From: a virus
Taxonomy: Duplodnaviria; Heunggongvirae; Uroviricota; Caudoviricetes
Virus record (IMG/VR): IMGVR_UViG_3300042894_003937
DNA length: 64,000 bases
Reading direction: 5' to 3' (one strand)
A program made the position numbers and the translations under genes. Under the pieces are notes generated by a model, which was not told the DNA's origin, did not search any database, and saw only the letters and a program-made list of their open reading frames with translations. Numbering within the stretch: position 1 is the first letter of the stretch; each line of letters starts with the position of its first letter. This document shows, piece by piece, positions 3,407 to 34,686 of this stretch.

Positions 3407-4687
3407 ATGAAATTAAATGAAGCTAAATTTAGAAGTCCAGAGTGGCTAAGAAACTTTGTTGACTTTGAAGTCAATACAGGTGAAGATATTAAAGGTGAAC
3501 CTTCTAAAAGAAAGGCCGCTAAACTTGAGAAAGAAAAACAAGATAAACTTAGAGCAGAAGCTAAAAAAAGAGCAGAAGCTAAAGAAAAAGCGGAAAAAGA
3601 GAGAAAAGAACAAGAGGATAGATATAAAGCTTGGAGAAAACAAGCTGATGAAAAAGAAGAACAAGATAAAATTGAACGAGATCTTAATACTCTTTATCGA
3701 TCAATAATCACTGACTTTAGTTCCGCTCGTTATTCAGATAAGATTAGTACACCACAAAGAAATGGTAAAACTGCGTTCTACTATACATTTGAGAATGGGA
3801 AAGTTATCAGAATGTATAAAAGTGCTACTGATAATAGATACCAGTTAGAATCGGAAACTCATATTTATACACTTGGTGTTATATGGTCAGGTAAATTTAT
3901 AGATTTAGCAAATGAAATGATTAAGAAGGGTACATCAAGACCTACTAGTGGTAGATCTGGTTATGATAGATATGATAGTTATGGTGGTAGTAGATCATCA
4001 GGTTCATCTGGTAGTTCAGGTTCTTCACAACAACAAAGAAAAGCTAATACACCACCAAAATGGAAAGACCATCCGAAAGGAGCAATGTATCAAAACTTAA
4101 AAGATACAGTTAAATTAAGAGAAGAACAATTAAAAAGAGCTAGTGGTTCTGATAGAGAAGCTTTACAAAATGAGTTGAATGCTGCTAAAAGAATGTTAGA
4201 CAATCTTAATAAAAAATATAGTTTTGAAAGTAATATACAGAACTTCTCACAATTCAATCAAATCTTTGAAAAAAGTAAGTTTGTTGATACCGATGAGTTT
4301 AACGAATTATTAGATAAGATAAATGATACTGGAATCACCTCTTTAACAGATATAGAAAAGAAAAGATTAGACCTTTTCTCAATGGATGATGAACCTATTT
4401 TAGATTTAATTGATAGAATGGGAGATTTAACTGCTGAGTTTAAAATAATAAACAAAAAGATAAAACAGTTATCTGACGAAGGTAAATCAGTTGAAGCTAA
4501 GAATTTATTTAGAGATCAATGGGACCCAATGAATGATGAGATGATTAAACTTGAAAGAGAAATCAAAAGTTATGGTATTGAAGTAGGTGACGAAACATTT
4601 ATGTCAATGATGAACAAACACAGAGGTGATGTTTATGGTTATGATGTTGATAATGAAGATGATGATGAATTAGAAATGGATATGTAA
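3407..4687 (+). CDS. K/E-rich coiled-coil protein with Gly/Ser-rich low-complexity segment
   Basis: 426 aa; long KE-rich heptad-like N-terminal region; SGSSGSSGSS tract. Confidence 0.6.
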   Translation: MKLNEAKFRSPEWLRNFVDFEVNTGEDIKGEPSKRKAAKLEKEKQDKLRAEAKKRAEAKEKAEKERKEQEDRYKAWRKQADEKEEQDKIERDLNTLYRSIITDFSSARYSDKISTPQRNGKTAFYYTFENGKVIRMYKSATDNRYQLESETHIYTLGVIWSGKFIDLANEMIKKGTSRPTSGRSGYDRYDSYGGSRSSGSSGSSGSSQQQRKANTPPKWKDHPKGAMYQNLKDTVKLREEQLKRASGSDREALQNELNAAKRMLDNLNKKYSFESNIQNFSQFNQIFEKSKFVDTDEFNELLDKINDTGITSLTDIEKKRLDLFSMDDEPILDLIDRMGDLTAEFKIINKKIKQLSDEGKSVEAKNLFRDQWDPMNDEMIKLEREIKSYGIEVGDETFMSMMNKHRGDVYGYDVDNEDDDELEMDM

Positions 4688-5163
4688 TGAGATATATAAG
4701 AACACTTGAATCATTAAAAGAAGATAAAGAAGAACTTGATCAATTTAAAGAAATAATTAAAATGATTTTTGTTGATTTAATTGATGAAGGATTTTCTCCA
4801 CAAATACTATTACAACAAAGAGTTAAGTCACGTATCAATGATTATACAACTCGTCTGGCAGAAAGTTATAATAACTGTAATGTTGTTTATATTAGACTTG
4901 TGAGAAATAAGTTATGGTCGGACCAAGAAGCATACAACTATCCACAGAATAATAAATCAGAAGAATTTAAAGATAAAATAACTGATTGTTTTGAAACTCT
5001 TCTAGCTTTGTTAGACAGAAGATGGAATGGTGCAAAGATTGAAAAGATTGTTAGACAAGACGCAGTTACTGCTAGTGATACTTACTTTCATGTTTTAGAT
5101 GAAAGAGTATGGAGTAGAGACTTTATATCAATTGCAATTACAATAGTTAAAAAAGAAATATAA
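4687..5163 (+). CDS. hypothetical protein with divergent Fam-A-like N-terminus (MRYIRTLESLKE)
   Basis: 158 aa; stop/start overlap with the neighbour. Confidence 0.5.
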   Translation: MRYIRTLESLKEDKEELDQFKEIIKMIFVDLIDEGFSPQILLQQRVKSRINDYTTRLAESYNNCNVVYIRLVRNKLWSDQEAYNYPQNNKSEEFKDKITDCFETLLALLDRRWNGAKIEKIVRQDAVTASDTYFHVLDERVWSRDFISIAITIVKKEI

Positions 5164-5164: not shown

Positions 5165-5557
5165 ATGAGATACTTAAAATTATTTGAAGATAACGAAGAT
5201 ATAACTATTGATAAAGATTATATTGAAATGTGTTTCGTTGATTTTATTGATGAGGATAACTTTAAACTAATGTTTCATGGACGAGTAAGTAGCAAAACTT
5301 GTGAGATCACTATTGATATGGAAGATAGTTCTTTACCTTTCTCTAGTTCAATAAGAGAATTTACTATGAGAACTGAACTGAGAAATCAACTATTTAATAA
5401 AATTGAAGAATGTTTATCTAAAGTAAAAATTGAATATCCTACAATGAAACATAAAGTAATGGATATGACTGGTGCTGATCAAACAGAAGTTAAAATTATA
5501 TTATCAGTATCAGAATCTTATATTTCATATAATCCTTCTGGATGGTTTCCGTTATAA
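5165..5557 (+). CDS. hypothetical protein with divergent Fam-A-like N-terminus (MRYLKLFEDNED)
   Basis: 130 aa. Confidence 0.5.
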   Translation: MRYLKLFEDNEDITIDKDYIEMCFVDFIDEDNFKLMFHGRVSSKTCEITIDMEDSSLPFSSSIREFTMRTELRNQLFNKIEECLSKVKIEYPTMKHKVMDMTGADQTEVKIILSVSESYISYNPSGWFPL

Positions 5558-8205: not shown

Positions 8206-8413
8206 TATAGGATATGAAGCTACTCACCGTGGTGAAGCAGGGAATGTAAGAATTGTATTTAAGAGAGGTCAAGTATATGATACGTTATCTGAATATGATA
8301 ACTGTTATATGTTCTTATTTGACCACGACATTTATATTATAAAAAAACTGTACTTTCTGACATTAGAACAAGTAGCTAAGAGAAAACTATTCTCGTTTAA
8401 CAAAAAAGCTTAG
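8189..8413 (+). CDS. small hypothetical protein
   Basis: 74-aa ORF. Confidence 0.4.
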   Translation: MKVICNIGYEATHRGEAGNVRIVFKRGQVYDTLSEYDNCYMFLFDHDIYIIKKLYFLTLEQVAKRKLFSFNKKA

Positions 8414-9237
8414 GTTATTTTTTTACCTATTTTCAATTTTATTGAGTACAATCCATATCTTTTAGTAAACTGTTCAGTATCAATATTATCAATAATAACA
8501 TCCTCACACGAGTAGTAATATTTGCTACCCATAAAGGTTTGAAAACAAACAAACTCACTCTTTTTACAATCAAAATCCTCAAAATGAAAGTTGAATAAGT
8601 TATATTGTTTTGACAACATATGTAAGAATGGTATGAAATGATCTTTTACTTCATCCCAAGTAAATATCTGTGTAACACCTGATATTTTAATTACTACTTC
8701 GGTCATATGACCACCATACTGTTCAGTATATTCAACCTCAAAGTTTTTATCTGTAAGGTAAGCTAAGTGAGTATCACAGAAGTCTTCAAGTTCTTCTTTT
8801 GGTGATAAACTCTCATTAAGTTGTTCTTTCTCACCAGATAAATATATATCTATGTAAGATACTACCTCAGTGGATAGTTTATCTAACTGATTTTCAAAGT
8901 TATCTCTGATTACTAAATTTATAGTAGGTCCTAAAATTTTAATTTCACTGATTTCATATTCCTTTTCTAATCTTACACAAAAAGGAATAAAATGATCCTT
9001 AATATCACCCCAATTAAAATCTTCTCTTTCTACACCTCTCTCCGCTCTCTGTTTTAAAGTTAAAGATTCTTTTTTAATTCCAATTGAAACATTTCCTATT
9101 GCATATTGTTGACCAACTCTTATTCGGAAACCTTCATCCATAAGATAAGCTAAATTAGTCTCACAATACTCAGTAAGTTCATTCTTTTGATCTCTCGACC
9201 ATCTATCAAATGCTTCAAATAATTTTATATACTTCAT
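8410..9237 (-). CDS. Fam-A paralog, two-domain (two LAYL..DHFIPF units)
   Basis: MKYIKLFEAF..; EYCETNLAYLMDEGF and DFCDTHLAYLTDKNF; GDIKDHFIPF and DEVKDHFIPFLHML. Confidence 0.7.
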   Translation of the reverse strand: MKYIKLFEAFDRWSRDQKNELTEYCETNLAYLMDEGFRIRVGQQYAIGNVSIGIKKESLTLKQRAERGVEREDFNWGDIKDHFIPFCVRLEKEYEISEIKILGPTINLVIRDNFENQLDKLSTEVVSYIDIYLSGEKEQLNESLSPKEELEDFCDTHLAYLTDKNFEVEYTEQYGGHMTEVVIKISGVTQIFTWDEVKDHFIPFLHMLSKQYNLFNFHFEDFDCKKSEFVCFQTFMGSKYYYSCEDVIIDNIDTEQFTKRYGLYSIKLKIGKKIT

Positions 9238-9668
9238 TTCTTATCATTTATTGTTATAGAGATCTTATCGAGCATCAAATATTTTAAATCTTCTTCATCA
9301 AGTAAATCTTGTAATGAATAACAAATACCACGCATACTTTCATCATATATTACATACGGTTTATCTGACCTATTACTGGATGAATCCTCTAATTCATAAC
9401 GTCTTTCTAATAGTTGTAAAAATGGTAAAATCCTATCTTTTACTGAATCCCAAGAAGTACCTTCATCTTTCTCTATACTTATATTTATACATCTACTATC
9501 AACTGGTATATAACCTTTTTTGGTATTCCAAATCCTAAAATCTATTTCCCAACCTTCATCAACTAAATAAGCTAATGATTGTTCAGTAAGATCCTTTACC
9601 TCTTCTAAAAGATTATCATAATATAATTCAACATCTTTCCAAGATTCAAATAAATTTATATACTTCAT
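9234..9668 (-). CDS. Fam-A paralog
   Basis: MKYINLFESW..LAYLVDEGW..DSVKDRILPFLQLL; ATGA overlaps on both sides. Confidence 0.7.
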   Translation of the reverse strand: MKYINLFESWKDVELYYDNLLEEVKDLTEQSLAYLVDEGWEIDFRIWNTKKGYIPVDSRCINISIEKDEGTSWDSVKDRILPFLQLLERRYELEDSSSNRSDKPYVIYDESMRGICYSLQDLLDEEDLKYLMLDKISITINDKK

Positions 9669-10525
9669 CTTTCCTTTACTATTATTCTTATCCTAGTATA
9701 AAACTTATTGGTAAGCCACTGATCTGCTTCACCACTTACAAGCTCTTCTATATCTTTTCTAGTATCATATTGGTACTGTCTTCCACCATTTTGATAAAAT
9801 ACTATTTCTAAAATATGATACTCTTTATTCAACATATAAATATACGGTGACAATCTATCAGTAATCTCCTCCCAAGTGAAACCCGAACGTTTAACTATTC
9901 TCGTACAAATACAACCAGCATAATTATTAGAACGGTCTGTTACCGGATTATCAGTAGTACCAATCTCAAACCCATCATCCATAAGGTAAACTAAACGATC
10001 CTGAGTAAATTCAAGAACATCATCTTTAAGACTTTCATTAGTTCTCAGTTGCCAAGAATACTGACCAACACTATGATCTAATACAACTACCCTAACAGAA
10101 CTAATTAAAGTAGCATGTTCATAAGAATGATTTTTATAACCTTTAGTCAAACTGAAAATCTTTTCTTTTACCTTGTCATCAATAACATCCTGAAAACTCA
10201 TCTTAACTTGAGCACCTCCTCTAATTTGAAAAAAGATTAAGTTATCCTTAATATCATACTGCTTATCTAAAATCTGTAGAAATGGTATAAATCTATCCTT
10301 TATATGATCCCAATCCATCCAATCAACCGTTCCACCAGCACCAGGTACCCAATTACCATACTGAGTATTATATTTAGGATTAACCAAATCTATTTGAGTT
10401 ACTCTACCGGATTCTCTAAAGTCTAAAGCATAACCATCATCTAACAAATAAGCTAGATACTGCTCACAGAAATCTTTTATCTCACCTGGTTCAATTGCTT
10501 CATTAAATTTCTTTAAGTATCTCAT
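9665..10525 (-). CDS. Fam-A paralog, two-domain
   Basis: MRYLKKFNEA..DFCEQYLAYLLDDGY..IKDRFIPFLQIL plus a second LVYLMDDGF..ITDRLSPYIYML unit. Confidence 0.7.
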   Translation of the reverse strand: MRYLKKFNEAIEPGEIKDFCEQYLAYLLDDGYALDFRESGRVTQIDLVNPKYNTQYGNWVPGAGGTVDWMDWDHIKDRFIPFLQILDKQYDIKDNLIFFQIRGGAQVKMSFQDVIDDKVKEKIFSLTKGYKNHSYEHATLISSVRVVVLDHSVGQYSWQLRTNESLKDDVLEFTQDRLVYLMDDGFEIGTTDNPVTDRSNNYAGCICTRIVKRSGFTWEEITDRLSPYIYMLNKEYHILEIVFYQNGGRQYQYDTRKDIEELVSGEADQWLTNKFYTRIRIIVKER

Positions 10526-10543
10526 AGAACTATATATTAAATC

Positions 10544-10996
10544 CTATTTTTGATCTTCATGCAACAAAATGTAAAAAGAAATACTAACAACATTATCTAA
10601 TGAAACCGTATCTAAATCTTGAATCTTATAATATGAAGTTGATGGTATATTATCCTCATCACGACAAGTAAAGATTATATCATCACCATTATGTTTATAA
10701 ACCTCTAAAATATGATACTTCTTCTTTAAATGATAAACAAATGGAATAAATTGATCTTTAACTTCATCAAAACTAAATGGATTGAATGTATAATGAGGAT
10801 CACTTTCTTCTCTTTTAAGAAAAATAAAGGTAGAAACTAGTTGATTATTTGCATTCACAAAAGTATCACTTCTAAATGAGTAACCATCATCTGCTAAATA
10901 AGCTAAATGAGTAGAACAAAAATCATCCAACTCTTGTCGTAATGCTTTTCTTTGTGGACGATTTAAAGCCTCGTTAAACCTTTTTAAATGTTTCAT
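10544..10996 (-). CDS. Fam-A paralog
   Basis: MKHLKRFNEA..DFCSTHLAYLADDGY..DEVKDQFIPFVYHL. Confidence 0.7.
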   Translation of the reverse strand: MKHLKRFNEALNRPQRKALRQELDDFCSTHLAYLADDGYSFRSDTFVNANNQLVSTFIFLKREESDPHYTFNPFSFDEVKDQFIPFVYHLKKKYHILEVYKHNGDDIIFTCRDEDNIPSTSYYKIQDLDTVSLDNVVSISFYILLHEDQK

Positions 10997-11011
10997 ATAT
11001 TATTTTATTTT

Positions 11012-11944
11012 TTAGTAAAATTGTACTTGTAATTCATAGAATTGTTCAGGAACATCCTGATCCTTTATAACATTTCTAATATCCATATAATAAAAATCTG
11101 CATCATAAACATCAGGTAAGAATCTGTCAAACACAATCGTTCTGTTTCTAGGATTATCATCTATGTAAACTGCCTTTTTTTGCATATGACGAACAATTTT
11201 TTCACGTGGCTCAATACTATACTCTCTTATCAACATATGTAAAAAAGGTATAACCTGATCTTTAACATCATTCCACTGAATTAGATCTTGAGCTCCTTCT
11301 ATAGTACGTCCATCATAACTAATATTTCTTGTTAAACTAACAAAGTAAGATGGTGATGCTCTGTAACCAGACATTTCCCATGTTACACTTAATTGATAAG
11401 TAGTATCATCTAAAAGATTTGCCAAGTAATTTGAACAGAACTCTCTAACATCATCGACACCACCGGCAGATTCATTATAACTCTTTAAGTATCTCATTAA
11501 AGATTCTTGTTCTTTAGTATCATTCTCTAACATTATTTCAATATATTGAATCTCATCATCATCTTCATACCAATTATCCACAACTCTTATAAACTTCTCA
11601 TAAGTGAATTCTCTTGATTCATGTCTCTGACGAACTTCAATCACTGAACCATTATCAGAACCAGAATCATCAAACTTATAATTCTTATGTAACTGAATCA
11701 CAAATGGAACAACATGATCTTTAACTTCACCCCAGTTGAAATTAGTTCTCATTACCTGACCTGAACCTAAATCAACTGTCTTACATAAAATAACCGAAAC
11801 AAATCGAGAAGGTTTCTTCCAATCAGTATCTTCAATTCTTATCTCAAAGTCAGGATCATCCAATAAGTAAGCCAAGTTTGTCTCACAGAAATCTTTCAAC
11901 TCATCTTTATCTAAACTCTCAAAAATCCTTTTTAAATATTTCAT
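11012..11944 (-). CDS. Fam-A paralog, fused doublet (internal MRYLKSYNES leader)
   Basis: MKYLKRIFES..DFCETNLAYLLDD..GEVKDHVVPFVIQL, then internal MRYLKSYNES..EFCSNYLANLLDD..NDVKDQVIPFLHML. Confidence 0.7.
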   Translation of the reverse strand: MKYLKRIFESLDKDELKDFCETNLAYLLDDPDFEIRIEDTDWKKPSRFVSVILCKTVDLGSGQVMRTNFNWGEVKDHVVPFVIQLHKNYKFDDSGSDNGSVIEVRQRHESREFTYEKFIRVVDNWYEDDDEIQYIEIMLENDTKEQESLMRYLKSYNESAGGVDDVREFCSNYLANLLDDTTYQLSVTWEMSGYRASPSYFVSLTRNISYDGRTIEGAQDLIQWNDVKDQVIPFLHMLIREYSIEPREKIVRHMQKKAVYIDDNPRNRTIVFDRFLPDVYDADFYYMDIRNVIKDQDVPEQFYELQVQFY

Positions 11945-12825
11945 TTTGTATCTTCTTTTTCTGTTAAAATAATCTGTAATCTAATTCTAATATCACCAAA
12001 ATAATACTGACCTGCAGCAGTCTTAAAAGACATAACAATCTTCTTACTAGCAAAATTATCCGATAAACTTAATAAAATCTTATCAGCAGCATCCTGTGCG
12101 AAAAACTCAACCTGATTCAATATATCAGATCTAAAATTAGATAACGGAACTGGCTTCTTAAATTGATTAGTAGTGAATACTCTCATCGGTTCAGACCTTA
12201 CACCAATTATCACATTCTCATATATAATACCTGTTCTTAAAATAGATTGCCACTCTTCCGTAGTAAGTGCTCTCTCCATAGAAATTGCTGTCATTGGTTC
12301 AATATTATCAGGACTTTTAGTAACCCTAACCCCTTCAAATCCAGAATCCAATAACTCAACCAAATAATGTTCTACATCATCTGTCTTTAATTCAACAGAC
12401 TCTTTAATAGGTTTCTTTTTTTCAGACCTGTAAGTCCAAGATTTGAGATCTACCCAAACTAAAATCTGTATTAAAGGTTCATTATCATATACATTTGGTA
12501 AAGGATTACCAGATAAAATTGTTTCAATATCAAACTCCGTATCATCATCTCCATCATAAAACTCTATAGTCTGATCTATTATATTATAATCTCTGTTTAA
12601 CATATGTAAAAATGGAATATATGACTCTTTAACATCTAACCAAGTAAAATCAATCACCTCATTATCAACCTTACCCAAACTTATCAAAAATGTCTTATTA
12701 TTATTTGTAGGTGAAACTTGTATTTTGTAACCATCATCTAACAAATAAGCTAGATAAGACTCACTAAAATCACGTAGCTGTGATTCTATATCAACAGACT
12801 CATTAAATCTTTTTAAATATCTCAT
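11941..12825 (-). CDS. Fam-A paralog with C-terminal extension
   Basis: MRYLKRFNES..DFSESYLAYLLDDGY..LDVKESYIPFLHML. Confidence 0.7.
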   Translation of the reverse strand: MRYLKRFNESVDIESQLRDFSESYLAYLLDDGYKIQVSPTNNNKTFLISLGKVDNEVIDFTWLDVKESYIPFLHMLNRDYNIIDQTIEFYDGDDDTEFDIETILSGNPLPNVYDNEPLIQILVWVDLKSWTYRSEKKKPIKESVELKTDDVEHYLVELLDSGFEGVRVTKSPDNIEPMTAISMERALTTEEWQSILRTGIIYENVIIGVRSEPMRVFTTNQFKKPVPLSNFRSDILNQVEFFAQDAADKILLSLSDNFASKKIVMSFKTAAGQYYFGDIRIRLQIILTEKEDTK

Positions 12826-13292
12826 TCTACCAATTTATTTTTCATTCCAACCTGAAGTGTAATCTCTAATAAAGGAACATCATCATATCTACCAGGTAAA
12901 GGATCACCAGATAAAACATCCTTAATCGAAACACAAAAGTTTTGACTACCATTATATAAACAAATACAAGGAACATCCCATTGTCCTGCGTTTCTACTTG
13001 CTTCACCTTTATCCATTATCTCATACTGCTTATCTAACATATGTAAAAAAGGAATATAAGAATCTTTAACCTCATTCCAAGTAAAACCAGTTGCTTTTCC
13101 CCATCCTAAATCCCAATTTAATTTACATAGATTTATATTATAATCATCTTCTTCTCTTCCTAAATAACCGTGTCCGTTCCAGATAACAGATAATTCAAAA
13201 TCACCATCCAACAAATAAGCTAGATAAGTCTCACAGAAATCTCTTAAATCTTTCTCTAAATCAACAGATTCAAATGTTTTTAAATACCTCAT
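12822..13292 (-). CDS. Fam-A paralog
   Basis: MRYLKTFESV..DFCETYLAYLLDGDF..NEVKDSYIPFLHML. Confidence 0.7.
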   Translation of the reverse strand: MRYLKTFESVDLEKDLRDFCETYLAYLLDGDFELSVIWNGHGYLGREEDDYNINLCKLNWDLGWGKATGFTWNEVKDSYIPFLHMLDKQYEIMDKGEASRNAGQWDVPCICLYNGSQNFCVSIKDVLSGDPLPGRYDDVPLLEITLQVGMKNKLVE

Positions 13293-13759
13293 ATCTTTAT
13301 AGTATTTTTTACTACAATACCAATCTCTTTTATATCATCACCAGTCCAATAATCTGGTCTTTTCACAAGTCTTTGACCCCAATCCTCAATCTCATCTGCT
13401 TTCAAAAATAATTGATTTCCCGACATAAAATTGATAATAATACTCGACTCCCTCTGATCTAAATCTTTATCATTCAAATCATACTCTCTTGATAAAATAG
13501 TAACAAATGGAATATAATAATCTTTAATGTCATTCCAATGAAAAGGTTGAATACGACGATCCACTAAAGTTTTACCCAACCATATAATATACGAGTCCCA
13601 GGCAGATTTAGCTCCAGACCTTTCAGTATCAATAACTTCTATCTTAAAACTCGTATCATCCAATAAGTAAGCTAAATAAGTCTCACAGAAATCTTGTAAC
13701 TCTACTTCATCAACCTGACTATATAAATCGTTCTCGAAAATCTTTTTTAAATATTTCAT
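13289..13759 (-). CDS. Fam-A paralog
   Basis: MKYLKKIFEN..DFCETYLAYLLDD..NDIKDYYIPFVTIL. Confidence 0.7.
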   Translation of the reverse strand: MKYLKKIFENDLYSQVDEVELQDFCETYLAYLLDDTSFKIEVIDTERSGAKSAWDSYIIWLGKTLVDRRIQPFHWNDIKDYYIPFVTILSREYDLNDKDLDQRESSIIINFMSGNQLFLKADEIEDWGQRLVKRPDYWTGDDIKEIGIVVKNTIKI

Positions 13760-14202
13760 ATCTTACGTTTTACTTTAAACATTATTTTTCTAACTGGTTG
13801 ATTACCCGGTATTAAATCATTTAGTATCTTTTCCTTTGGTACATTCGCGCCTGAAAAATCTACCAAATTATTAACAAGACTTCCGTCTTTCATACTACGA
13901 GAAACACTAGGTATCAATTCATAATTATCTATCAAAACTTTGAAGAATGGTATAAAATAATCAGATACATCATCCCAAGTAGCATTAGGATAACTATGTG
14001 ATCCATCAGCATTCGTTTCATATCTTCTCCAAATCATACAGTCATAATAACCAGTATTTGGATAAACTGAAGTTCTCATAGCAATGTCTATTCGCCAATT
14101 ACCATCATCTAATAAGTAAGCTAAATACATCTCACAGAAATCTTTTAACTGCTCATACTCATCTCTATTGACCTCTTCAAAAATTTTTCTTAAATACTTC
14201 AT
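13756..14202 (-). CDS. Fam-A paralog
   Basis: MKYLRKIFEE..DFCEMYLAYLLDDGN..DDVSDYFIPFFKVL. Confidence 0.7.
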   Translation of the reverse strand: MKYLRKIFEEVNRDEYEQLKDFCEMYLAYLLDDGNWRIDIAMRTSVYPNTGYYDCMIWRRYETNADGSHSYPNATWDDVSDYFIPFFKVLIDNYELIPSVSRSMKDGSLVNNLVDFSGANVPKEKILNDLIPGNQPVRKIMFKVKRKI

Positions 14203-14216
14203 ACTCTATATATTAT

Positions 14217-14636
14217 TTAAAAATTTCTAAACCACGCTTTTTCAACCCTTTCTCCCTTTTTAACAACCCTAATGTATAAAGTAGCTATCTCAGTATCATC
14301 TGGTAAATCATTTATCTGATTTAATGTTAAAGGCTTTTGTTTAATACCAGAACCACCATGAAAAACAATACCCATAGCAGGTTCAACATCATTATCATAA
14401 TATAATTCGTAATACTTAAATAGAAAATGTAAGAAAGGTAGAACCTGATCCTTTACTTCAGACCATAAAAAATTAATTGGCTCAGAAGTACCCAACATTA
14501 TCTGATGATAATCATCTCCTTCAAACTTTGAAATCCTTACTTTAAAACCCTCATCTAACAAATAAGCTAAATTAGTCTCACAGAAATCTAATAACTCTTC
14601 TTTTAAACTCTCATTGAACTTTCTCAAATGTTTCAT
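14217..14636 (-). CDS. Fam-A paralog
   Basis: MKHLRKFNES..DFCETNLAYLLDEGF..SEVKDQVLPFLHFL. Confidence 0.7.
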   Translation of the reverse strand: MKHLRKFNESLKEELLDFCETNLAYLLDEGFKVRISKFEGDDYHQIMLGTSEPINFLWSEVKDQVLPFLHFLFKYYELYYDNDVEPAMGIVFHGGSGIKQKPLTLNQINDLPDDTEIATLYIRVVKKGERVEKAWFRNF

Positions 14637-14644
14637 ACCTAATC

Positions 14645-15490
14645 TTATTTTTCTTTAATCATAATACCCACCGAATATATACCTTGCTTATCCGAATAAG
14701 AACCAAATAAAGTATCATTCACCACCGAATATAACGGGAAATCACTAAACGCCTCATCAGTATAACCATGATGTAATCTAAACCTAACCTGACTTGTCGA
14801 ACGACCATCTTTCCTCGGATTACCAAATCCAATAATCTGATACCTATTATGTAATAACTTTAATAACGGTATGTAATAATCCTTTATATCATCCCAAGTG
14901 AAAGTATCACTCTTAAGCGCATATTGATTACTAAGTGATAACCAAATCGCAGTAGTATCATCCTCTGAACCTCTAGGAATAAAAATACGAAAACCCTCAT
15001 CCAATAAATAAGCTAAACAACTTTCTACGAAATCCGTTAACTCATCCTTATCTATACTCTCATTAAACATCTTCAAATGTTTCATACCATCCTTTTTAAC
15101 CACAATCGAAAAACTATAAAATAACATATCATCTCGTAAATCCTCTAACCGATCTATATCCTTAATATGTATATCATCCGAATAAGTCGCTTCTATCCTA
15201 ATAATCGATGAACTGCCCTCATAACCCACCTGATACCTATTAGATAACATCTGTACAAAAGGAATAATACGATTCTTTACCGATGACCACTCAACATCAT
15301 CATGATGAATCCTATTGTTTCTAACCGACCTAGGCGATAACAAAACAATCTTATACGATGTAGTAAATCCCCACACCGATACCGACCACTCATCATCGAT
15401 AAGATAAGCTAAGTAATCATTAGCAAACTCCTGTAACTCTGCCCTTTTATCAGTAGATTCATCATTGAAAGCTTCATTCAAATACTTCAT
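14645..15490 (-). CDS. Fam-A paralog, fused doublet (internal MKHLKMFNES leader)
   Basis: First unit EFANDYLAYLIDDEW..SSVKNRIIPFVQML; second unit starts with an intact internal leader MKHLKMFNESIDKDELTDFVESCLAYLLDEGF..DDIKDYYIPLLKLL. Confidence 0.7.
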   Translation of the reverse strand: MKYLNEAFNDESTDKRAELQEFANDYLAYLIDDEWSVSVWGFTTSYKIVLLSPRSVRNNRIHHDDVEWSSVKNRIIPFVQMLSNRYQVGYEGSSSIIRIEATYSDDIHIKDIDRLEDLRDDMLFYSFSIVVKKDGMKHLKMFNESIDKDELTDFVESCLAYLLDEGFRIFIPRGSEDDTTAIWLSLSNQYALKSDTFTWDDIKDYYIPLLKLLHNRYQIIGFGNPRKDGRSTSQVRFRLHHGYTDEAFSDFPLYSVVNDTLFGSYSDKQGIYSVGIMIKEK

Positions 15491-15924
15491 ACCTTTTCAC
15501 CTTTAATTTTAAATTGAATTGTATAAATCTTATAATCATCACGAAGACGACTAGAAGGAACAATCTGCTCCGATATAATATCATCCATATTAAACCAATC
15601 AGAATATGTACTCTCCAAACCAATTATCTCAATTCTTACATTAGGCGAAACAAGCCTACGATCCATCGTAACTAAATCATACCCATTTCTTAAATGTGTC
15701 AAAAATGGTATAACCTGATCCTTTATCTGACCCCACCTCTTATTAGCAAATAATCTAAATGATAACGTCACCTTATAATCTATAATCTTTAAATCAAAAT
15801 AATCTGGTGAAACCAAAACCCTTAAACCATCATCCATCAAATAAGCTAAGTGAGTCTCACAGAAATCTTGTATATCTTGCTCAGTTAAATCTTTATTCTC
15901 ATTATATCTTCTCAAATGTTTCAT
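15487..15924 (-). CDS. Fam-A paralog
   Basis: MKHLRRYNEN..DFCETHLAYLMDDGL..GQIKDQVIPFLTHL. Confidence 0.7.
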   Translation of the reverse strand: MKHLRRYNENKDLTEQDIQDFCETHLAYLMDDGLRVLVSPDYFDLKIIDYKVTLSFRLFANKRWGQIKDQVIPFLTHLRNGYDLVTMDRRLVSPNVRIEIIGLESTYSDWFNMDDIISEQIVPSSRLRDDYKIYTIQFKIKGEKV

Positions 15925-15927
15925 ACA

Positions 15928-16464
15928 TTATTTATTATTTTCAAAGTTAATTAAAATCGGATCTTTGTAAATATATCCATTTTCAATTCTCTGTGTTTGT
16001 TTAGCATTAGGCCAATAAGAAACAAGTTTATATAAACTTTCACATACTTTTATTGAATTTTTATATTCTTTTCTTACTTCACCATTTACTATCCATTTAT
16101 TTCCATGTACATATACCTGATTCGATTTCTTTTCTTTAATATCTTCCATATTATTATAAAATATTATCTCACTATGCCACTGAATATCAAAAAATATACT
16201 ATACTTTTCCATTCCTAGCTTTGTACCCTGATATATCACATCTTCAATATCATCTATATTATGATGACCTGTCAAAATAATATCAATATCAAGTGGTGTA
16301 CCTTCATCATTTAGTAATTTATTCGCAAAACTTCCTAATAACAAAACATCAAATTTTTCCGCATTCGGTATTTTAAAAAAATCCTCTCGCCAAGCAAAAA
16401 ATGACTCTACACTTGGCGACTTCCAATTTATATCTATATCTATTTTTCCGTATTTTATATTCAT
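15928..16464 (-). CDS. putative nucleotidyltransferase (pol-beta superfamily motif GS-x15-DIDI)
   Basis: LLLGSFANKLLNDEGTPLDIDIILTG fits hG[GS]..[DE]h[DE]h; further acidic residue in FFDIQ; 178 aa. Confidence 0.45.
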   Translation of the reverse strand: MNIKYGKIDIDINWKSPSVESFFAWREDFFKIPNAEKFDVLLLGSFANKLLNDEGTPLDIDIILTGHHNIDDIEDVIYQGTKLGMEKYSIFFDIQWHSEIIFYNNMEDIKEKKSNQVYVHGNKWIVNGEVRKEYKNSIKVCESLYKLVSYWPNAKQTQRIENGYIYKDPILINFENNK

Positions 16465-16590
16465 TATTCTAATTTATTTTATCACTCACTAAACCCCTAC
16501 GTGCGTCAGCACGTTTACGACTCCGACGACCCACATTCTTCTTGCCGAAGGCAACGACTCCACCGAAACCCAATTGGTCCCACCACAATC
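16465..16590 (-). other. GC-rich intergenic island with three short palindromes (candidate structured leader / ori / pac-like element)
   Basis: acgtgcgtcagcacgt, ttgccgaaggcaa, ccaattgg; direct repeat acgactcc x2; compositional outlier in an AT-rich genome; immediately upstream of the nucleotidyltransferase start. Confidence 0.4.
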
Positions 16591-17034
16591 CTAATCCTTC
16601 TTTAAACCCTTAACCGTCAACTTAACCGTAGTAACCAAAAAATCCGGTGCTCCATCATTTACTATCTGATCCACCGTAAATACCTTCTTATTTATATCCA
16701 ACTGCTCGGTACTATAAAAATGAATCCATTCAGACAAATCATACCTCCTAGATAATATACGAACCAACGGGATAAACCTATCCATCACCAAAGAATAATC
16801 ATATAACTTATTAGTAAATCTGCCTATTTGGTCTGGACGACCATCAGTTAAAGATAACCTTATATCAAACTCACCATTCCAAGCCGGTCTTATCTCATAC
16901 GTAAATCCATCATCCGACAACGGTGCCAAAAATTGCTCACATAAATCATCCAACCCATCCTGTAAATCATCACCTTTCAACCTAACATAAAAATCTGACT
17001 CCATAAAACTTTTTAAATACCTCATCATATACAT
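16591..17034 (-). CDS. Fam-A-like paralog (divergent)
   Basis: MYMMRYLKSFMES..DLCEQFLAPLSDDGF..MDRFIPLVRIL. Confidence 0.65.
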   Translation of the reverse strand: MYMMRYLKSFMESDFYVRLKGDDLQDGLDDLCEQFLAPLSDDGFTYEIRPAWNGEFDIRLSLTDGRPDQIGRFTNKLYDYSLVMDRFIPLVRILSRRYDLSEWIHFYSTEQLDINKKVFTVDQIVNDGAPDFLVTTVKLTVKGLKKD

Positions 17035-18929: not shown

Positions 18930-19451
18930 TTAAAATGCGTATTGATCAAATGATTTATATCTTTCTCCTTCTTTATATTTATCAAATTTCACTCTTGTAG
19001 ATGTACCGTTATAAATATAACCTTCATTAAATTCTAAAATATATGTTAAATTCCCATCTTTGTAAGAAATTGATTCTTGATCAACATCTAAAACTTCGAA
19101 GTCTTGACCATCTATTGTTATGTAATCATTATTAGGTTGATAGTTTAAACTAATGTTACCTTGAACGGCAGTATTTATAAATTGTTGGGAATTGATAATA
19201 TAATTTTCATTTCCGGGGTTATAATATTTAAGTACTAATTCGGCATTTATCACGAATCCTTTTTCAGGATTTATGTGTTTTTGTTTAACTACGTTTTCTA
19301 TGTTATCATCGGGTGTACATGATTGAAAAGGACTTCCAAGTAGACATGCACCCATAGCGGCACCAATAATTGCTTTCTTACCGAAGTTTGCTAAGCCTTC
19401 GTTAGTTTCTTCACTTTTAGTGAATTTATTAAAATCGTTTAAATATTTCAT
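18930..19451 (-). CDS. secreted/lipoprotein-like protein with Fam-A-type leader (MKYLNDFNKF)
   Basis: Hydrophobic segment AIIGAAMGACLLGSPFQSC after the leader. Confidence 0.55.
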   Translation of the reverse strand: MKYLNDFNKFTKSEETNEGLANFGKKAIIGAAMGACLLGSPFQSCTPDDNIENVVKQKHINPEKGFVINAELVLKYYNPGNENYIINSQQFINTAVQGNISLNYQPNNDYITIDGQDFEVLDVDQESISYKDGNLTYILEFNEGYIYNGTSTRVKFDKYKEGERYKSFDQYAF

Positions 19452-24353: not shown

Positions 24354-24385
24354 AAAAAAACCCACTATTAAGCGGGTTTGTTTTT
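24354..24385. terminator. hairpin aaaccc-N10-gggttt plus T-run (variant of the 18869 hairpin)
   Basis: aaaaaaacccactattaagcgggtttgttttt. Confidence 0.45.
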
Positions 24386-24935
24386 ATTTAACGGCTACTA
24401 TTTCAAAGTAACCGTTATGATCAATTGAACCAACATCAGCAACTCTAGCTTCTTCACCTTTATCTAAACGACAATAAATTCCTACTTCACCTTTCAACTG
24501 AGTAGTATTATAATAATTATTAGTCGGTATATCTTGATATTCTGTTCCATATGAAGAATAGATACCTATTTCACCAGCTTCTTTATTGTATTTTATAAAA
24601 TAATTATTTGTTGGTATATCCTGACTACGACTTCTATAATCTTCAATGTCTTTTGGATCGTAATTCTTGAATAGTAGGTAGTATTCACCATGTTTCATTT
24701 CCAAACCTTTAGCTTCTTTATGTGATAAAGAAGGAGTTGATGCTAAATCTATCCAACTACCGAAATAAAACCAGTTATCTCTTGGCGGCGTTAAAGCAAT
24801 TGCCGATTTAATATAATTATCCCAAAATTTATCATAACCACTCTGAGTAAATTTAACAACAATTTTATCAGGGTTGTTTTTCGTATTTTCATAATTATAT
24901 TCATTAAACTCCTCAAATAATTTTACGTATTTCAT
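24384..24935 (-). CDS. hypothetical protein with MKYVKLFEEF leader and internal YQDIPTNNY repeat
   Basis: 183 aa; two copies of QDIPTNNY..GE(I/V)GIY. Confidence 0.55.
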   Translation of the reverse strand: MKYVKLFEEFNEYNYENTKNNPDKIVVKFTQSGYDKFWDNYIKSAIALTPPRDNWFYFGSWIDLASTPSLSHKEAKGLEMKHGEYYLLFKNYDPKDIEDYRSRSQDIPTNNYFIKYNKEAGEIGIYSSYGTEYQDIPTNNYYNTTQLKGEVGIYCRLDKGEEARVADVGSIDHNGYFEIVAVK

Positions 24936-24985: not shown

Positions 24986-25390
24986 CTAATTGAAGATCAA
25001 ACCATTTAATGTAGAAGGATCCACTTTACAATCTCTTTCATCGAATGCCATAAGAATTTTATCACCTTCGTGTAATACACCGATAAGTTTATCATCCATT
25101 CCTTGATCAATAAGTTCTACTACAGAGAATTTCTTCTCACCATTTACATATTGTTTCCAAAATGTTTCAGCTCTTGGTCTAGTTAATCCAAATCCTGTCT
25201 CGTACGATGGATTACCATAAAGACACCATAACACTGGTTTATTATTTTCTTCAATCCATTCAGAAACAGTTAGACAAAAATCACCATGTTCTTCTGGTCC
25301 AAATGTATGTGTAGAAAACATCTTACCATTTGGGTTTTGATACTTAACTTCTTCATTAGTGAAGTTTTCAAATAATTTTACGTATTTCAT
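24986..25390 (-). CDS. hypothetical protein with MKYVKLFENF leader
   Basis: 134 aa. Confidence 0.5.
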   Translation of the reverse strand: MKYVKLFENFTNEEVKYQNPNGKMFSTHTFGPEEHGDFCLTVSEWIEENNKPVLWCLYGNPSYETGFGLTRPRAETFWKQYVNGEKKFSVVELIDQGMDDKLIGVLHEGDKILMAFDERDCKVDPSTLNGLIFN

Positions 25391-25667: not shown

Positions 25668-26171
25668 ATGAAACACATTAAAGAATTTAATCAAATCAAC
25701 GAAGGTAAAGGTGATTGGATAAGAACAATACAAACACTTTTTGATAAATCTGACGTAGGATCTTTTTCTGGTGATGAAATGGATTTCGAAATGTTTCAGA
25801 AATGGGATAATTTATTACCATATCTTGATCAATATGGTGAAATAAATAACTCTAAGCCTTTAGGTCCTATTGAAGAAACTATTAGACATTTTGAAAATAA
25901 ACAATTAAAGAAAGAATTTATTCCAATGCAAGATATTTCAAAAGAAGAGAAGGAAATCAAAAAGAGAGAAGGCACTCCAAAAGTTTATACTGCCTTCGGA
26001 GAACATGAATGGAATTTAGATAGTTATAATAAAGAATATCAAGATGGTGTTAAAAAACTTAGAAAAGCTTGGATGAGTTTCTTAAAAGAGGCGGGTACAT
26101 TTGCGGGAAAGGCTCATTTTGATATTGATATTGAACCTGGTAGAAAAGTTATTGGAGTACCCAGAAAGTAA
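25668..26171 (+). CDS. hypothetical protein with MKHIKEFNQ leader
   Basis: 167 aa. Confidence 0.5.
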   Translation: MKHIKEFNQINEGKGDWIRTIQTLFDKSDVGSFSGDEMDFEMFQKWDNLLPYLDQYGEINNSKPLGPIEETIRHFENKQLKKEFIPMQDISKEEKEIKKREGTPKVYTAFGEHEWNLDSYNKEYQDGVKKLRKAWMSFLKEAGTFAGKAHFDIDIEPGRKVIGVPRK

Positions 26172-28484: not shown

Positions 28485-28781
28485 TTAATTAAAGCAGATA
28501 TAATTACCTACATAATATCTATTAAAAGTTTGAGGATCGATATAAACCGTTATAAATGTACCATTCTGATTTATATCAAATGAATATTGAGTGTTTCCAT
28601 TATTTCTTTTAGAAGCGATTAAGCCACAACCATAATATCTTTCAGTATAATTTGGATATAAAAATCCAATATTGTAATAAACTGGATTTATATAATTTGG
28701 AATTTGATAATTTGGAATTGGTTCTACAACACATCCACTTAATGTAAATGATAGTACAATTGCTAATATAATTTTTTTCAT
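28485..28781 (-). CDS. lipoprotein (signal peptide plus lipobox LSGC)
   Basis: MKKIILAIVLSFTLSGCVV. Confidence 0.55.
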   Translation of the reverse strand: MKKIILAIVLSFTLSGCVVEPIPNYQIPNYINPVYYNIGFLYPNYTERYYGCGLIASKRNNGNTQYSFDINQNGTFITVYIDPQTFNRYYVGNYICFN

Positions 28782-34239: not shown

Positions 34240-34686
34240 ATGAAACATTTAAAAAAATTTAATGAAAGTTTAGAACCAGTTGAGATCGATGAGTTAAAAG
34301 ACTTCTGTGAGACATCACTCGCTTATCTATTAGATGATGGGTATCAAGTTAGTGTATATGAATCAAGATTTAAAGATGTATCTGTAAGAGATAAAGTAAA
34401 GTATCCTGAGAAAGAACATACAATTGTAAGTTTGGGTTTAAAAGGAAAAATGGGTTATAGGTTATTCGATTGGAATGATATAAAAGATTATTACATACCA
34501 TTTCTTCAAATGTTAGTAAGAAGATATGAATTACTACCTTTCGGAATGTATGATAAGATTTGTTATTTTAATACCGAAGGTGGTTTTAGATATTTATCAT
34601 TAGATCAAGTTATAAATGATAGGGTTGGCTCAGAACTTGGTAGTCGTTTGTGGGGAATAAATATAATGATAGTAGATAAGATATGA
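34240..34686 (+). CDS. Fam-A paralog (start at MKHLKKFNES)
   Basis: DFCETSLAYLLDDGY..NDIKDYYIPFLQML; the ORF-track start upstream is unlikely. Confidence 0.7.
   Translation: MKHLKKFNESLEPVEIDELKDFCETSLAYLLDDGYQVSVYESRFKDVSVRDKVKYPEKEHTIVSLGLKGKMGYRLFDWNDIKDYYIPFLQMLVRRYELLPFGMYDKICYFNTEGGFRYLSLDQVINDRVGSELGSRLWGINIMIVDKI

Follow-up and report, generated by a model that had tools for sequence, protein, structure and literature searches.

Fam-A, an alpha/beta domain some 135 residues long that has not been described before, has expanded to 25 genes within the window, by which we mean the whole 64-kb stretch of phage DNA analysed. Each copy consists of two separable modules, a disordered N-terminal leader and a folded domain, and the leader, a portable peptide signal, resembles an address label. 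When a profile HMM built from eight genes of the main array is iterated over all window ORFs to convergence, it detects 29 significant domain copies and a weak 30th, the C-terminal half of the 11941–12825 protein (E 0.047). Together the genes occupy 13,719 nt, or 21.4% of the window (Table 1). The expansion claimed in the first-pass annotation is therefore real, and every gene on its list was recovered, the divergent 4687 and 5165 included. Its inability to place the domain in a known family was also borne out, as Pfam-A, PHROGs v4 and NCBIfam 20 give only chance matches below the family thresholds, and a tblastn search of 50,697 GenBank phage records with a member returned nothing at E<=0.01.

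Table 1. Fam-A genes, other leader-bearing genes and array features in the window (lengths in aa unless stated).
Position	Strand	Feature	Evidence
4687..5163	+	Divergent Fam-A, 158	HMM E 3e-19 after iteration
5165..5557	+	Divergent Fam-A, 130	HMM E 6e-12
8410..9237	-	Fam-A, two domains, 275; last array gene	HMM domains 1-139, 132-270; E 3e-33, 4e-30
9234..9668	-	Fam-A, one domain, 144	HMM E 1e-33; ATGA overlap on both sides
9665..10525	-	Fam-A, two domains, 286	HMM E 7e-33, 2e-24; AATATATA motif 5 nt upstream
10544..10996	-	Fam-A, 150	HMM E 9e-36
11012..11944	-	Fam-A, two domains, 310	HMM; internal leader MRYLKSYNES retained
11941..12825	-	Fam-A, 294; one clear domain, very divergent second after I-K-E-S	HMM E 5e-33, 0.047
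12822..13292	-	Fam-A, 156; reference copy for structure model	HMM E 7e-40
13289..13759	-	Fam-A, 156	HMM E 4e-36
13756..14202	-	Fam-A, 148	HMM; AATATATA motif 4 nt upstream
14217..14636	-	Fam-A, 139	HMM E 5e-34
14645..15490	-	Fam-A, two domains, 281	HMM E 5e-31, 2e-36; complete internal leader MKHLKMFNES, disordered linker
15487..15924	-	Fam-A, 145	HMM E 2e-33
15928..16464	-	Interloper ORF, not Fam-A, 178	No Fam-A HMM match
16465..16590	-	G+C-rich non-coding element within array, 126 nt	93% identical to L002
16591..17025	-	Fam-A, first array gene, 144 from leader Met	HMM E 1e-27; TATATATA just upstream
18930..19451	-	Non-Fam-A, 173, leader MKYLNDFNK	hhalign to family profile covers residues 1-9 only
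24384..24935	-	Non-Fam-A, 183, leader MKYVKLFEEF	hhalign covers residues 1-12 only
24986..25390	-	Non-Fam-A, 134, leader MKYVKLFENF	No HMM match at E up to 10
25668..26171	+	Non-Fam-A, 167, leader MKHIKEFNQ	Leader match in sequence
34240..34686	+	Fam-A, 148 from leader Met	HMM E 6e-39
34683..35123	+	Fam-A, 146	HMM E 2e-39
39100..39636	-	Fam-A, 178; same gene string as two other leader-bearing genes	HMM E 1e-30
39639..40859	-	Alpha/beta-hydrolase-like, ~406, leader MKHLKLYKQF	Homologues carry PF00561
40874..41098	-	ORF, 74, leader MKHLKTYSQ	Leader match in sequence
42517..43131	+	Fam-A, 204: leader, ~60-aa insert, domain	HMM; TATATATA 4 nt upstream
53117..53701	+	Fam-A, 194: leader, very basic ~45-aa insert, Y-K-N-E-S, domain	HMM; TATATATA 4 nt upstream
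53703..54212	-	Fam-A, 169	HMM E 3e-36
54209..54604	-	Fam-A, 131	HMM; TATATATA 4 nt upstream
59930..60340	+	Fam-A, 136	HMM; TATATATA 4 nt upstream
60342..60788	+	Fam-A, 148	HMM E 3e-25
60791..61261	+	Fam-A, 156	HMM E 1e-37

Thirteen of the genes lie in the minus-strand array at 8410–17034, and five of these encode two-domain proteins, one with a weak second copy only. The annotation had read the array as 13 consecutive genes chained by ATGA overlaps; the count stands, but the run is broken by an unrelated ORF and a non-coding element, and the 4-nt ATGA overlap is found at seven junctions, the rest being spacers of 8–18 nt. Two starts also had to be moved, that of the 16591 gene to 17025, though its ORF runs to 17034, and that of the 34183 ORF to 34240. 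The interrupting ORF has no match in Pfam or PHROG; its motif LGS-x13-DIDII resembles, at the level of sequence, that of minimal nucleotidyltransferases. By gene order, the related 515,853-bp contig L002 has a Fam-A gene in its place. The non-coding element is present in a single copy, is conserved in L002 despite diverged flanking genes, and found no match in an Rfam search.

The copies are not products of recent duplication in situ, a possibility raised in the first-pass annotation, as they are only 24–49% identical to the reference copy and are thus old paralogs. Identity among window paralogs is 29–60%, the closest pair being 34240–34686 and 34683–35123 (60%). Tandem duplication long ago, together with fusion and fission of genes, produced the expansion: the array is collinear with its L002 counterpart apart from fusion/fission and gain/loss differences, and the two-domain gene at 11012–11944, for example, is two separate genes there. 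Orthologues in the two arrays are 60–89% identical over whole proteins and 39–89% by domain. Because of this collinearity, and because dN/dS between the arrays is 0.26–0.59 as against 0.07–0.20 in six of seven flanking genes, we conclude that Fam-A genes are functional and fast-evolving. High copy number and the fusion and fission differences between relatives would also be expected of decaying or selfish duplicates without function, a reading that we consider scarcely credible and that the selection data contradict: all 25 ORFs are intact, a diverged genome preserves the orthologues in their order at a dN/dS far below 1, and some 1,500 diverged Fam-A clusters keep the same conserved positions.

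Conservation within the fold is concentrated in two helices, DFCExxLAYLLDDG and WxxVKDxxIPFLxxLxxxY, which hold nearly all of the conserved residues, while the C-terminal half of the domain and a beta-hairpin of variable length are hypervariable. The motifs given in the first-pass annotation, of which it called the N-terminal one invariant, are strongly conserved, but in an alignment of 24 domains only E8, L24, A25, L27 and D29 are invariant, and several copies have S, A, V or T in place of the supposedly strictly conserved Cys. The AF2 model of the reference copy has a pLDDT of 82.9 and a pTM of 0.79. A tail terminator or completion fold (lambda gpU, T4 gp15, DUF3168) was considered and rejected, as structural scores lie below any accepted threshold, sequence similarity is lacking, and copy number and variability are incompatible with such an identity. 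It is more broadly most improbable that the proteins are structural virion parts in many variants, whether neck- or tail-terminator-like, decoration or fibre-associated.

The N-terminus, which the annotation had counted as an invariant part of the module, is instead a disordered, portable leader lying outside the fold. In Fam-A it comprises 9–10 residues, M-[KR]-[YH]-L-K-x-F-N-E followed by S, with a broader consensus of M-[KR]-[YH]-[LI]-[KR]-x-[FIY]-[NF]-E and then a small residue. We regard it as separable from the fold because pLDDT falls below 50 at residues 1–6 or 1–10 of the AF2 models, and because inserts of 45–60 aa stand between leader and domain in 42517 and 53117. The model of the two-domain 14645–15490 protein has pLDDT below 50 solely at residues 1–10 and at the internal leader, residues 139–144.

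Portability is apparent from genes that share nothing else with the family. The leader begins six of 108 non-family window genes, against 0.02 expected, with no internal matches, so that 31 of about 133 window genes (about 23%) bear it. When four of the six were compared with the Fam-A profile by hhalign, two aligned within residues 1–12 only and the other two had no significant similarity. Beyond the window, a degenerate DNA pattern for the leader matches at least 120 stretches of viral contigs in IMG/VR, on more than 100 AT-rich contigs; 98 of the 136 ORFs that start with the leader in these stretches are not Fam-A and, once redundancy is removed, stand for at least 70 proteins, among them SET, GNAT, LRR and Zn-ribbon members. 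Tandem LRR arrays also bear it, and the hydrolase-like family retains it in almost every full-length homologue, with identities as low as 36%. The leader is virus-specific and almost absent from cellular genomes, 596 Gb of which contain the pattern in only eight stretches; every one lies in a MAG, and a single MAG accounts for five. It is thus a short N-terminal sequence common to unrelated proteins of the same phage, as a propeptide may be.

Selection acts on the leader as a peptide, since synonymous codons are free to vary (TAT 35/TAC 38, CAT 32/CAC 35, AAA 97/AAG 43, GAA 108/GAG 32) and replacements are conservative (K/R, Y/H, F/I/Y). This bears on an explanation that we consider improbable, in which N-terminal conservation reflects a constraint on translation initiation, possibly on leaderless mRNAs, with an A/U-rich unstructured 5' coding region being selected or bound by a regulator. 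Leader codons are indeed almost purely A/U (AUG AAA UAU UUA AAA AAA UUU AAU GAA), promoter-like TATATATA or AATATATA lies 4–5 nt upstream of most cluster-head Fam-A genes, and no SD-like sequence is visible upstream of the family's genes. However, residue order is fixed beyond mere A/U richness, synonymous variation runs against the idea, and the leader is equally conserved inside ATGA-coupled strings and where 20–35 nt separate motif and ATG. AATATATA, a putative late promoter upstream of cluster heads, is not enriched window-wide (30 found versus 20.7 expected).

The source phage is T4-related and very AT-rich, and its host is probably a member of the Bacteroidota. Signs of the T4 lineage are a T4_Y16D domain and a gene that also occurs in about 1,300 phage records, most of them listed with hosts that known T4-type phages infect; relatives are found on contigs of 400–650 kb. 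The megaphages LR745206 and LR756502 have another leader family. Their relative Mar_Mega_1 has T4-type protease, portal and capsid (MCP) proteins by Phyre2 (PMC9723777 supplement).

The T4 capsid-targeting sequence (CTS) is MKTYQEFIAE. Only M1, K2 and F7 coincide with M-K-Y-L-K-K-F-N-E, and the two are not homologous. Their likeness is one of design: after an initial M-K, each has an aromatic or hydrophobic character at positions 3/4 and 7, and each closes with hydrophobic-x-Glu and then a small residue. This ending, which fits the prohead-protease motif (L or I as the hydrophobic residue in T4), is nearly universal in Fam-A: of 230 family leaders, 228 have Glu at position 8 or 9, 85% have a hydrophobic P3 (one of F, I, Y, L, V and M) and 91% have S, A, N or G at P1'. 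At internal junctions M-K-x-L-K is kept by only three of 45 domains, whereas the Glu-containing tripeptide upstream is kept in 39, mostly as x-N-E-[SA]; the 8410–9237 protein, for instance, retains L-N-E-S. The pattern suggests separate targeting and processing parts, as in the T4 CTS, where targeting depends on residues 4 and 7 and processing on residues 8 and 10 (PMC9026906). The internal N-E-S could, on the other hand, be the domain's own, perhaps capping a helix.

The internal proteins of T4 are defence proteins of diverse kinds with only the CTS in common (PMC3012670). IPI, IPII, IPIII and Alt, like the proteins described here, are otherwise unrelated and fast-diversifying, and all begin with a leader about 10 residues long. 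Both systems combine enzymes (Alt in T4; SET, GNAT and hydrolase-like proteins here) with small inhibitor (IPI) or unassigned proteins, and both occur in phages with T4-type genes. As is typical of T4-type internal head proteins, the Fam-A locus is hypervariable between related phages, as judged against L002. Our best reading, a tentative one that falls somewhat short of being probable, is that the leader acts like the T4 CTS, both targeting proteins to the capsid and offering a protease its cleavage site, so that diversified effectors would be loaded into the head. Packaging, cleavage, ejection and targets are what we infer for Fam-A by this analogy. Docking on the prohead scaffolding core would fall to the N-terminal part of the leader (Y3, L4, F7), a gp21-type prohead protease would cut after the Glu of hydrophobic-x-E, and the mature domains would be kept in the head and delivered to the host along with the DNA. 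The internal x-N-E-S that two-domain fusions retain may let the protease part their domains.

Several observations sit uneasily with head loading, the lack of homology between the leader and the T4 CTS among them. The system also differs from that of T4 in that its cargo domain is new. With 25 Fam-A copies and 31 leader genes in 64 kb, as compared with a handful in T4, very many protein species would have to share one head. Fam-A proteins are acidic (pI 4.4–5.9, with one exception), unlike T4 internal proteins, which are described as basic and DNA-associated (PMC9026906). The analysis covered the 64-kb window and 20-kb pieces of related contigs, and the gp21-type protease is known only from the literature, for a relative of phages with another leader family. 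Leader number and acidic pI are easier to accommodate if the proteins are cytoplasmic, made after infection as host-takeover or anti-defence binders, with the leader serving as a tag for a non-capsid process: it could recruit them to a phage structure inside the cell, bind a common hub protein or chaperone, or time their degradation. A portable, disordered, virus-specific leader under protein-level selection suits this equally well, and SET, GNAT and hydrolase-like enzymes need no injection. We nevertheless judge this somewhat less likely than head loading, as it leaves unexplained both the near-universal hydrophobic-x-E and small residue at the leader end and the retention of x-N-E-S, with the rest lost, at internal junctions. 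A literature search also found no comparable non-capsid N-terminal sorting tag for tailed phages, whereas head loading has an exact functional precedent in the T4 CTS.

Large tandem expansion of an uncharacterised giant-phage family has a parallel in paralog family B of SPN3US and phiKZ (gp138–154 and others), of which the giant phage SPN3US has 20 members in its head, and diverged SPN3US head paralogs, such as gp53 and gp54, have identical N-terminal propeptides ending in an x-E cleavage motif (PMC5694885). The SPN3US propeptides, however, are mostly longer than 100 residues, the lineage is phiKZ-like rather than that of a T4-related megaphage, and no homology to those families was detected for Fam-A by PHROG or in the tblastn search (50,697 GenBank phage records, E<=0.01). 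Other expansions are also comparable. Bacillus phage G has about 35 Zn-ribbon copies, a lineage-specific jumbo-phage expansion, and bacteria carry tandem arrays of polymorphic immunity proteins (SUKH and similar). Like Fam-A, these are tandem, diverged small domains whose surfaces vary around a conserved core, a pattern interpreted as diversification through conflict; they differ in fold and sequence, Pfam gives no SUKH, Imm or Zn-ribbon signal in Fam-A, and those families are not reported to have a shared portable leader.

Overall, the first-pass interpretation of the family as an arms-race arsenal is partly supported. One undescribed domain family, with a tag common to unrelated proteins, makes up a fifth of these 64 kb of giant-phage DNA and, if the proteins are indeed loaded into the head, Fam-A would act in the host as a diversified binding or inhibitor panel against host factors that vary, defence systems for instance.

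Fam-A, a family of small paralogous domains of about 135 residues, occupies a minus-strand gene string that runs unbroken in the ORF list from 17034 down to 8410. A profile HMM seeded with eight single-domain genes and iterated over all window ORFs converged on 25 genes with 29 significant domain copies, 13 of the genes lying in the array; a 30th, very divergent copy forms the C-terminal half of 11941-12825. This confirms, with minor corrections, the first-pass annotation, which had reported a 13-gene tandem array and at least 23 genes with about 29 copies; every locus that it named was recovered by the HMM, including the divergent pair at 4687 and 5165. The 13 genes are not strictly consecutive, as the series has a single interruption, consisting of a non-Fam-A ORF and a G+C-rich spacer. 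Chaining by ATGA start/stop overlaps of 4 nt holds at seven junctions, but the others are spacers of 8–18 nt, and the share of coding capacity first put at about a quarter comes to 13,719 nt, or 21.4% of the window by nucleotides. Five of the 13 array genes encode two-domain proteins, one of them with only a weak second copy.

The interrupting ORF has no match in Pfam or PHROG, and its position is taken by a Fam-A gene in L002, a related contig with a collinear array. The neighbouring element is single-copy and 93% identical to its L002 counterpart, as against approximately 60–66% protein identity for the flanking genes. It contains several hairpins, one of them a UUCG-loop stem, with a folding z-score of only -1.5, and an Rfam search with it gave no match. 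Sigma-70 promoters and intrinsic terminators show no excess over chance in the array.

In an alignment of 24 Fam-A domains, which are 24–49% identical to the reference copy, no substitution occurs at E8, L24, A25, L27 or D29, and M1, Y26, W72, K76, D77, P81 and Y90 each reach 90% conservation or more. The strong motif conservation noted at first pass therefore stands, but strict invariance is limited to those five positions, and the Cys of "DFCE" is substituted in several copies. We rejected a catalytic Cys/acid motif, the functional core proposed earlier, because the Cys is variable and the conserved positions are mostly hydrophobic and lie in helices. An AlphaFold2 model made from the paralog alignment (pLDDT 82.9, pTM 0.79) predicts an N-terminal helix pair (residues 12-29) bearing DFCExxLAYLLDDG, a beta-hairpin (32-59), a long helix (72-89) bearing WxxVKDxxIPFLxxL and, after it, a beta-beta-alpha-beta segment that makes up the C-terminal half. 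Variation in length and sequence is concentrated in the hairpin and the C-terminal half; the pattern is that of a conserved scaffold with diversified surfaces, and not of an active site.

The domain had been described as unassignable, and so it proved: there are no family matches in Pfam, PHROGs or NCBIfam, an 88-sequence profile found nothing among PDB sequences, tblastn against 50,697 GenBank phage records returned nothing, and megablast against GenBank phages likewise left it unassigned. Homologues are nevertheless numerous. A word-indexed protein search gave 561, none of which has a Pfam domain or an informative name, and exhaustive HMMER against 1.84 billion cluster representatives gave 1,530 at E≤0.001 (977 of these at E≤1e-10), with one to three domains each and the profile nearly always beginning at residue 1. 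Fam-A is thus a large undescribed family of about 1,500 clusters at 50% identity, and its predicted fold is confident and without a known structural relative. That its members are structural parts of the virion, of a tail-terminator-like kind, is quite improbable, the one point in favour being a fold resemblance below threshold.

The closest Fam-A paralogs in the window are 29–60% identical, and the orthologues in the collinear L002 array are 60–89% identical over the whole protein and 39–89% by domain. Gene boundaries differ in places: where the window has the single two-domain gene 11012-11944, L002 has a pair of ATGA-coupled genes, and 16591-17025 matches the second domain of a 317-aa protein there. 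By the Nei-Gojobori method, dN/dS is 0.26–0.59 for ten Fam-A orthologue pairs between the window and L002, compared with 0.07–0.20 for UDG, HAD, a clamp-loader-like gene, UPF0227 and two small ORFs; one 112-aa neighbour ORF has 0.51. Non-synonymous evolution of Fam-A is several-fold faster than that of most of its neighbours. Given these values and the retention of orthologues in a diverged relative, the copies are old and have been kept by selection. Recent in-situ duplication, for which the first-pass annotation had proposed a phylogenetic check, is rejected on the grounds of paralog identity and orthologue persistence, and the notion that the copies are non-functional duplicates is contradicted by the selection data and is scarcely credible.

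The N-terminus of Fam-A is a portable peptide leader, M-[KR]-[YH]-L-K-x-F-N-E. It is disordered over residues 1-6 to 1-10 in models of both a single-domain and a two-domain protein, and in the latter (14645-15490) the sole other segment with pLDDT below 50 is the internal leader in the linker (residues 139-144). In 42517-43131 and 53117-53701 (both plus strand) it stands at the extreme N-terminus, with the domain 45–60 aa further on. The intervening insert is helical and TPR-like in the former (about 60 aa); in the latter it is strongly basic (Lys/Arg-rich, about 45 aa) and could bind nucleic acid.

Six genes outside the Fam-A HMM begin with the pattern M-[KR]-[YHF]-[LIVM]-[KRN]-x-[FYILA] (18930, 24384, 24986, 25668, 39639 at Met3, and 40874), where N-terminal composition predicts 0.02 such starts in 108 genes, and the pattern has no internal match in 15,198 residues. 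When four of the six were compared with Fam-A by profile-profile alignment, two aligned at the first 9–12 residues only, and the other two gave short, non-significant internal matches (probability ≤6%). The 406-aa protein at 39639 belongs to an alpha/beta-hydrolase-like family (PF00561 falls just under its gathering score) in which nearly all full-length homologues retain the leader, down to 36% identity. The leader is carried by 31 of about 133 window genes. Its synonymous sites vary freely while its amino-acid replacements are conservative, and therefore selection acts on the peptide. A DUF3293 protein (35189-35965, plus strand) with a weak match to the S-adenosylmethionine-lyase family (E 0.003) has a leader-like R-Y-I-K-S-F-N-Q from residue 16, which may mark the true start or follow an N-terminal extension. 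The leader strings gave no paper in a full-text search of the literature, and to our knowledge and by our searches the leader is undescribed.

Beyond the window, M-[KR]-[YH]-L-K-[KR]-F-N-E, written as a degenerate DNA pattern, matched at least 120 contig stretches in IMG/VR. Among the matches listed, the contigs span 4–483 kb with a median G+C of 28.8%, and 136 ORFs start at the pattern, 38 of them Fam-A; the other 98 reduce to 70 non-redundant proteins with nothing but the leader in common. These include SET-domain, GNAT acetyltransferase, LRR and Zn-ribbon proteins, and nearly all the rest of those listed lack a Pfam or PHROGs match. A leader family of about 250 aa recurs in the GenBank megaphages LR745206 (634,780 bp) and LR756502 (642,428 bp), 40-kb stretches of which hold more leader ORFs and weak Fam-A matches. 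Bacterial and archaeal genomes, 596 Gb in all, gave only eight stretches with the same pattern. All are in MAGs, and 'Candidatus Muiribacterium halophilum' (JALOAD01 contigs) accounts for five. The three of the five that were read carry tandem ATGA-coupled arrays of 8–9 leader-bearing LRR genes (MKY[LI]K.FNE[SN]); their contigs, of about 25% G+C, probably represent phage DNA that binning placed in a bacterial MAG. In its first 50 kb, Bacteroides phage DAC19, a cultured relative for one gene, has neither leader nor Fam-A, and its annotation tells nothing further.

The window has about 30% G+C, a GC skew that tracks transcription direction, and long strings of 60–130-aa ORFs. Its genes are present on JGI metagenome contigs (sample 3300042890); the syntenic array, flanked by UDG and a HAD-family gene in the order UDG, array, HAD, lies on a 515,853-bp ENA contig (L002), and further homologues are found on contigs of 378–649 kb. 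The neighbours encode a T4_Y16D-domain protein, FolD, RpiB, ThyA, UDG, methyltransferases, an endonuclease VII/HNH protein, collagen-like fibre proteins and LRR proteins. Homologues of the gene at 6115-6813 occur in about 1,300 phage records, the majority listed under Escherichia, Klebsiella, Vibrio and further hosts of known T4-type phages, and UDG is nearest to Flavobacterium and Bacteroides phage genes. TAnnTTTG, the -7 element of Bacteroidota sigma-A promoters, occurs in many intergenic regions. On the basis of the neighbour genes, the phage-record homologues, TAnnTTTG and the UDG affinity, the source is a T4-related phage, and probably a megaphage of a Bacteroidota host. A giant eukaryotic virus was considered for the AT-richness, the collagen and LRR genes and the paralog families; it was rejected in view of T4_Y16D, the clamp-loader and endonuclease VII PHROG families, the ATGA-coupled strings, the Bacteroidota-type TAnnTTTG and the phage-record homologues of 6115-6813. 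A 426-aa DUF6576 protein (3407-4687, plus strand) is 71% identical over its first 35 residues to a stretch of the 735-kb megaphages LR756501 and LR756503, in which the remainder has no match.

There are two promoter-like classes, the sigma-A type and a phage-specific (T)TTAATATATA. A/T-rich AATATATA or TATATATA lies upstream of most of the genes that head Fam-A clusters, and also of other leader genes and of a gene for a collagen-like fibre. This distribution would be compatible with one shared promoter that is specific to the phage and possibly late; motifs of the AATATATA type have no window-wide enrichment. (T)TTAATATATA often stands only 4–5 nt before the ATG, recurs before leader genes in IMG/VR contigs, and by this closeness suggests leaderless mRNAs. 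No Shine-Dalgarno sequences are visible. The leader might reflect a constraint on translation initiation in mRNAs that are leaderless or lack a Shine-Dalgarno sequence. We consider this improbable: the residues keep a fixed order, synonymous sites vary freely, and genes within coupled strings conserve the leader equally well.

A second small-protein family (50–82 aa) has 13 window copies by HMM, and 8189-8413 may be another; seven members begin MKV.C or MKW.RC, and most end W/L-R-E-x-K-L-N-x-I-L. The collagen-repeat and LRR pairs listed below are further local duplications, possibly encoding alternative fibre or receptor-binding proteins, and four of the signal-peptide-like ORFs have a Cys after the hydrophobic stretch in lipoprotein fashion.

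Coordinates of additional features in the window
Feature	Position	Strand	Description
Non-Fam-A ORF in array	15928-16464	-	178 aa; LGS-x13-DIDII resembles minimal nucleotidyltransferases
G+C-rich non-coding element	16465-16590	-	126 nt, inside AT-rich array; L002 counterpart 3496-3627
TAnnTTTG sites	upstream of e.g. 5604, 6115, 7526, 27353, 30712, 32395, 50672
AATATATA sites	upstream of e.g. 2962, 3407, 22497, 24986, 25668, 31107, 35189, 38056, 41109, 43169, 52325
Second-family ORF starts	6813, 29298, 33045, 33439, 44484, 46332, 46565, 47138, 47597, 48193, 48401, 58661, 62772
Rfam tRNA	33253-33352	-	100 nt, 37.3 bits; absent from ARAGORN calls; may contain intron
T-arm-like GGTTCGAGTCC	~61930-61960	-	upstream of 61912; no Rfam match
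Adjacent collagen-repeat genes	21800-22390, 22497-24305	-	first 24 residues identical
Adjacent genes, first an LRR protein	35980-37230, 37245-37982	+	first 16 residues identical
Signal-peptide-like N-termini	28485-28781, 30017-30343, 49593-50018	-	small ORFs
Signal-peptide-like N-termini	56898-57401, 58810-59019	+	small ORFs

The leader has the same formal properties as the T4 capsid-targeting sequence (CTS). The first 10 residues of T4 internal protein IPIII are enough for head incorporation, CTS residues 4 and 7 serving in targeting and residues 8 and 10 directing cleavage by the prohead protease gp21, and the CTS is regarded as a means by which T4-like phages bring diverse proteins into the head (PMC9026906). 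The T4 internal proteins are diverse defence proteins with the CTS alone in common (PMC3012670). Phage SPN3US has a 20-member head paralog family, and its diverged head paralogs have identical N-terminal propeptides ending in a cleavage motif (PMC5694885). Mar_Mega_1, a relative of LR745206 and LR756502, has a T4-type prohead protease, portal and capsid by Phyre2 (PMC9723777 supplement).

Of the hydrophobic residues in the leader, Y3, L4 and F7 are the best conserved. Among 230 Fam-A leaders, 228 have Glu as residue 8 or 9; around a putative cut after this Glu, 85% have a hydrophobic P3 and 91% have S/A/N/G as P1'. Within multi-domain proteins, just 3 of 45 internal domains keep M-K-x-L-K, while 39 of the 45 have an E-containing tripeptide upstream, mostly x-N-E-[SA]. 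This is what would be expected if targeting is required once per protein and cleavage at each domain junction, although the junction N-E-S could alternatively be part of the domain. Capsid loading with proteolytic release is the best explanation and the one we rank first, if tentatively; everything in it beyond a portable peptide signal is what we infer. Against it count the lack of homology between leader and CTS, the acidic character of Fam-A as opposed to the basic T4 internal proteins, and the sheer number of window genes bearing the leader. The leader might instead be a tag that directs proteins to another destination or hub, in which case they would act in the cytoplasm. The portability data fit this as well, but the terminal hydrophobic-x-E plus small residue, kept at internal junctions, is left unexplained, and we find this reading doubtful.

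The leader may be a general and hitherto unrecognised protein-sorting code across a wide range of very AT-rich large and huge phages, a conceivable generalization that falls short of probable. It would mark a cargo proteome bound for a single place, most likely the inside of the capsid and, from there, the infected cell. The cargo would comprise Fam-A as its largest family, LRR arrays, the ~250-aa family, SET and GNAT enzymes, hydrolase-like proteins and dozens of unknown families, and mature Fam-A domains, ejected into the host, would form a diversified panel of binders or inhibitors. Such a system would be alike in kind to the T4 CTS and internal-protein arsenal and the giant-phage head paralog families, but with another leader, new cargo domains, a far larger scale and probably a different host phylum.

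We know of no megaphage (>500 kb) that has ever been cultured, and annotation is lacking for most megaphage genes. With a short tag that can be read from sequence, proteins of common fate could be recognised, and a tag common to dozens of families across uncultivated huge phages would surprise a specialist. Whatever the mechanism, Fam-A remains a large family with a confident predicted fold. If the fate is the capsid, candidate injected effectors and anti-defence proteins, namely Fam-A, the LRR arrays and the SET, GNAT and hydrolase-like enzymes, would be identifiable from metagenomes alone, and the T4 capsid-targeting principle would reach a much larger scale and a different host phylum. The T4 CTS became a tag for packaging foreign proteins, and the leader could likewise serve to package them into Bacteroidota phages. 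The leader makes the question of what megaphages inject directly testable and, if the explanation is true, the injected effector repertoire of uncultivated megaphages would be legible directly from sequence.
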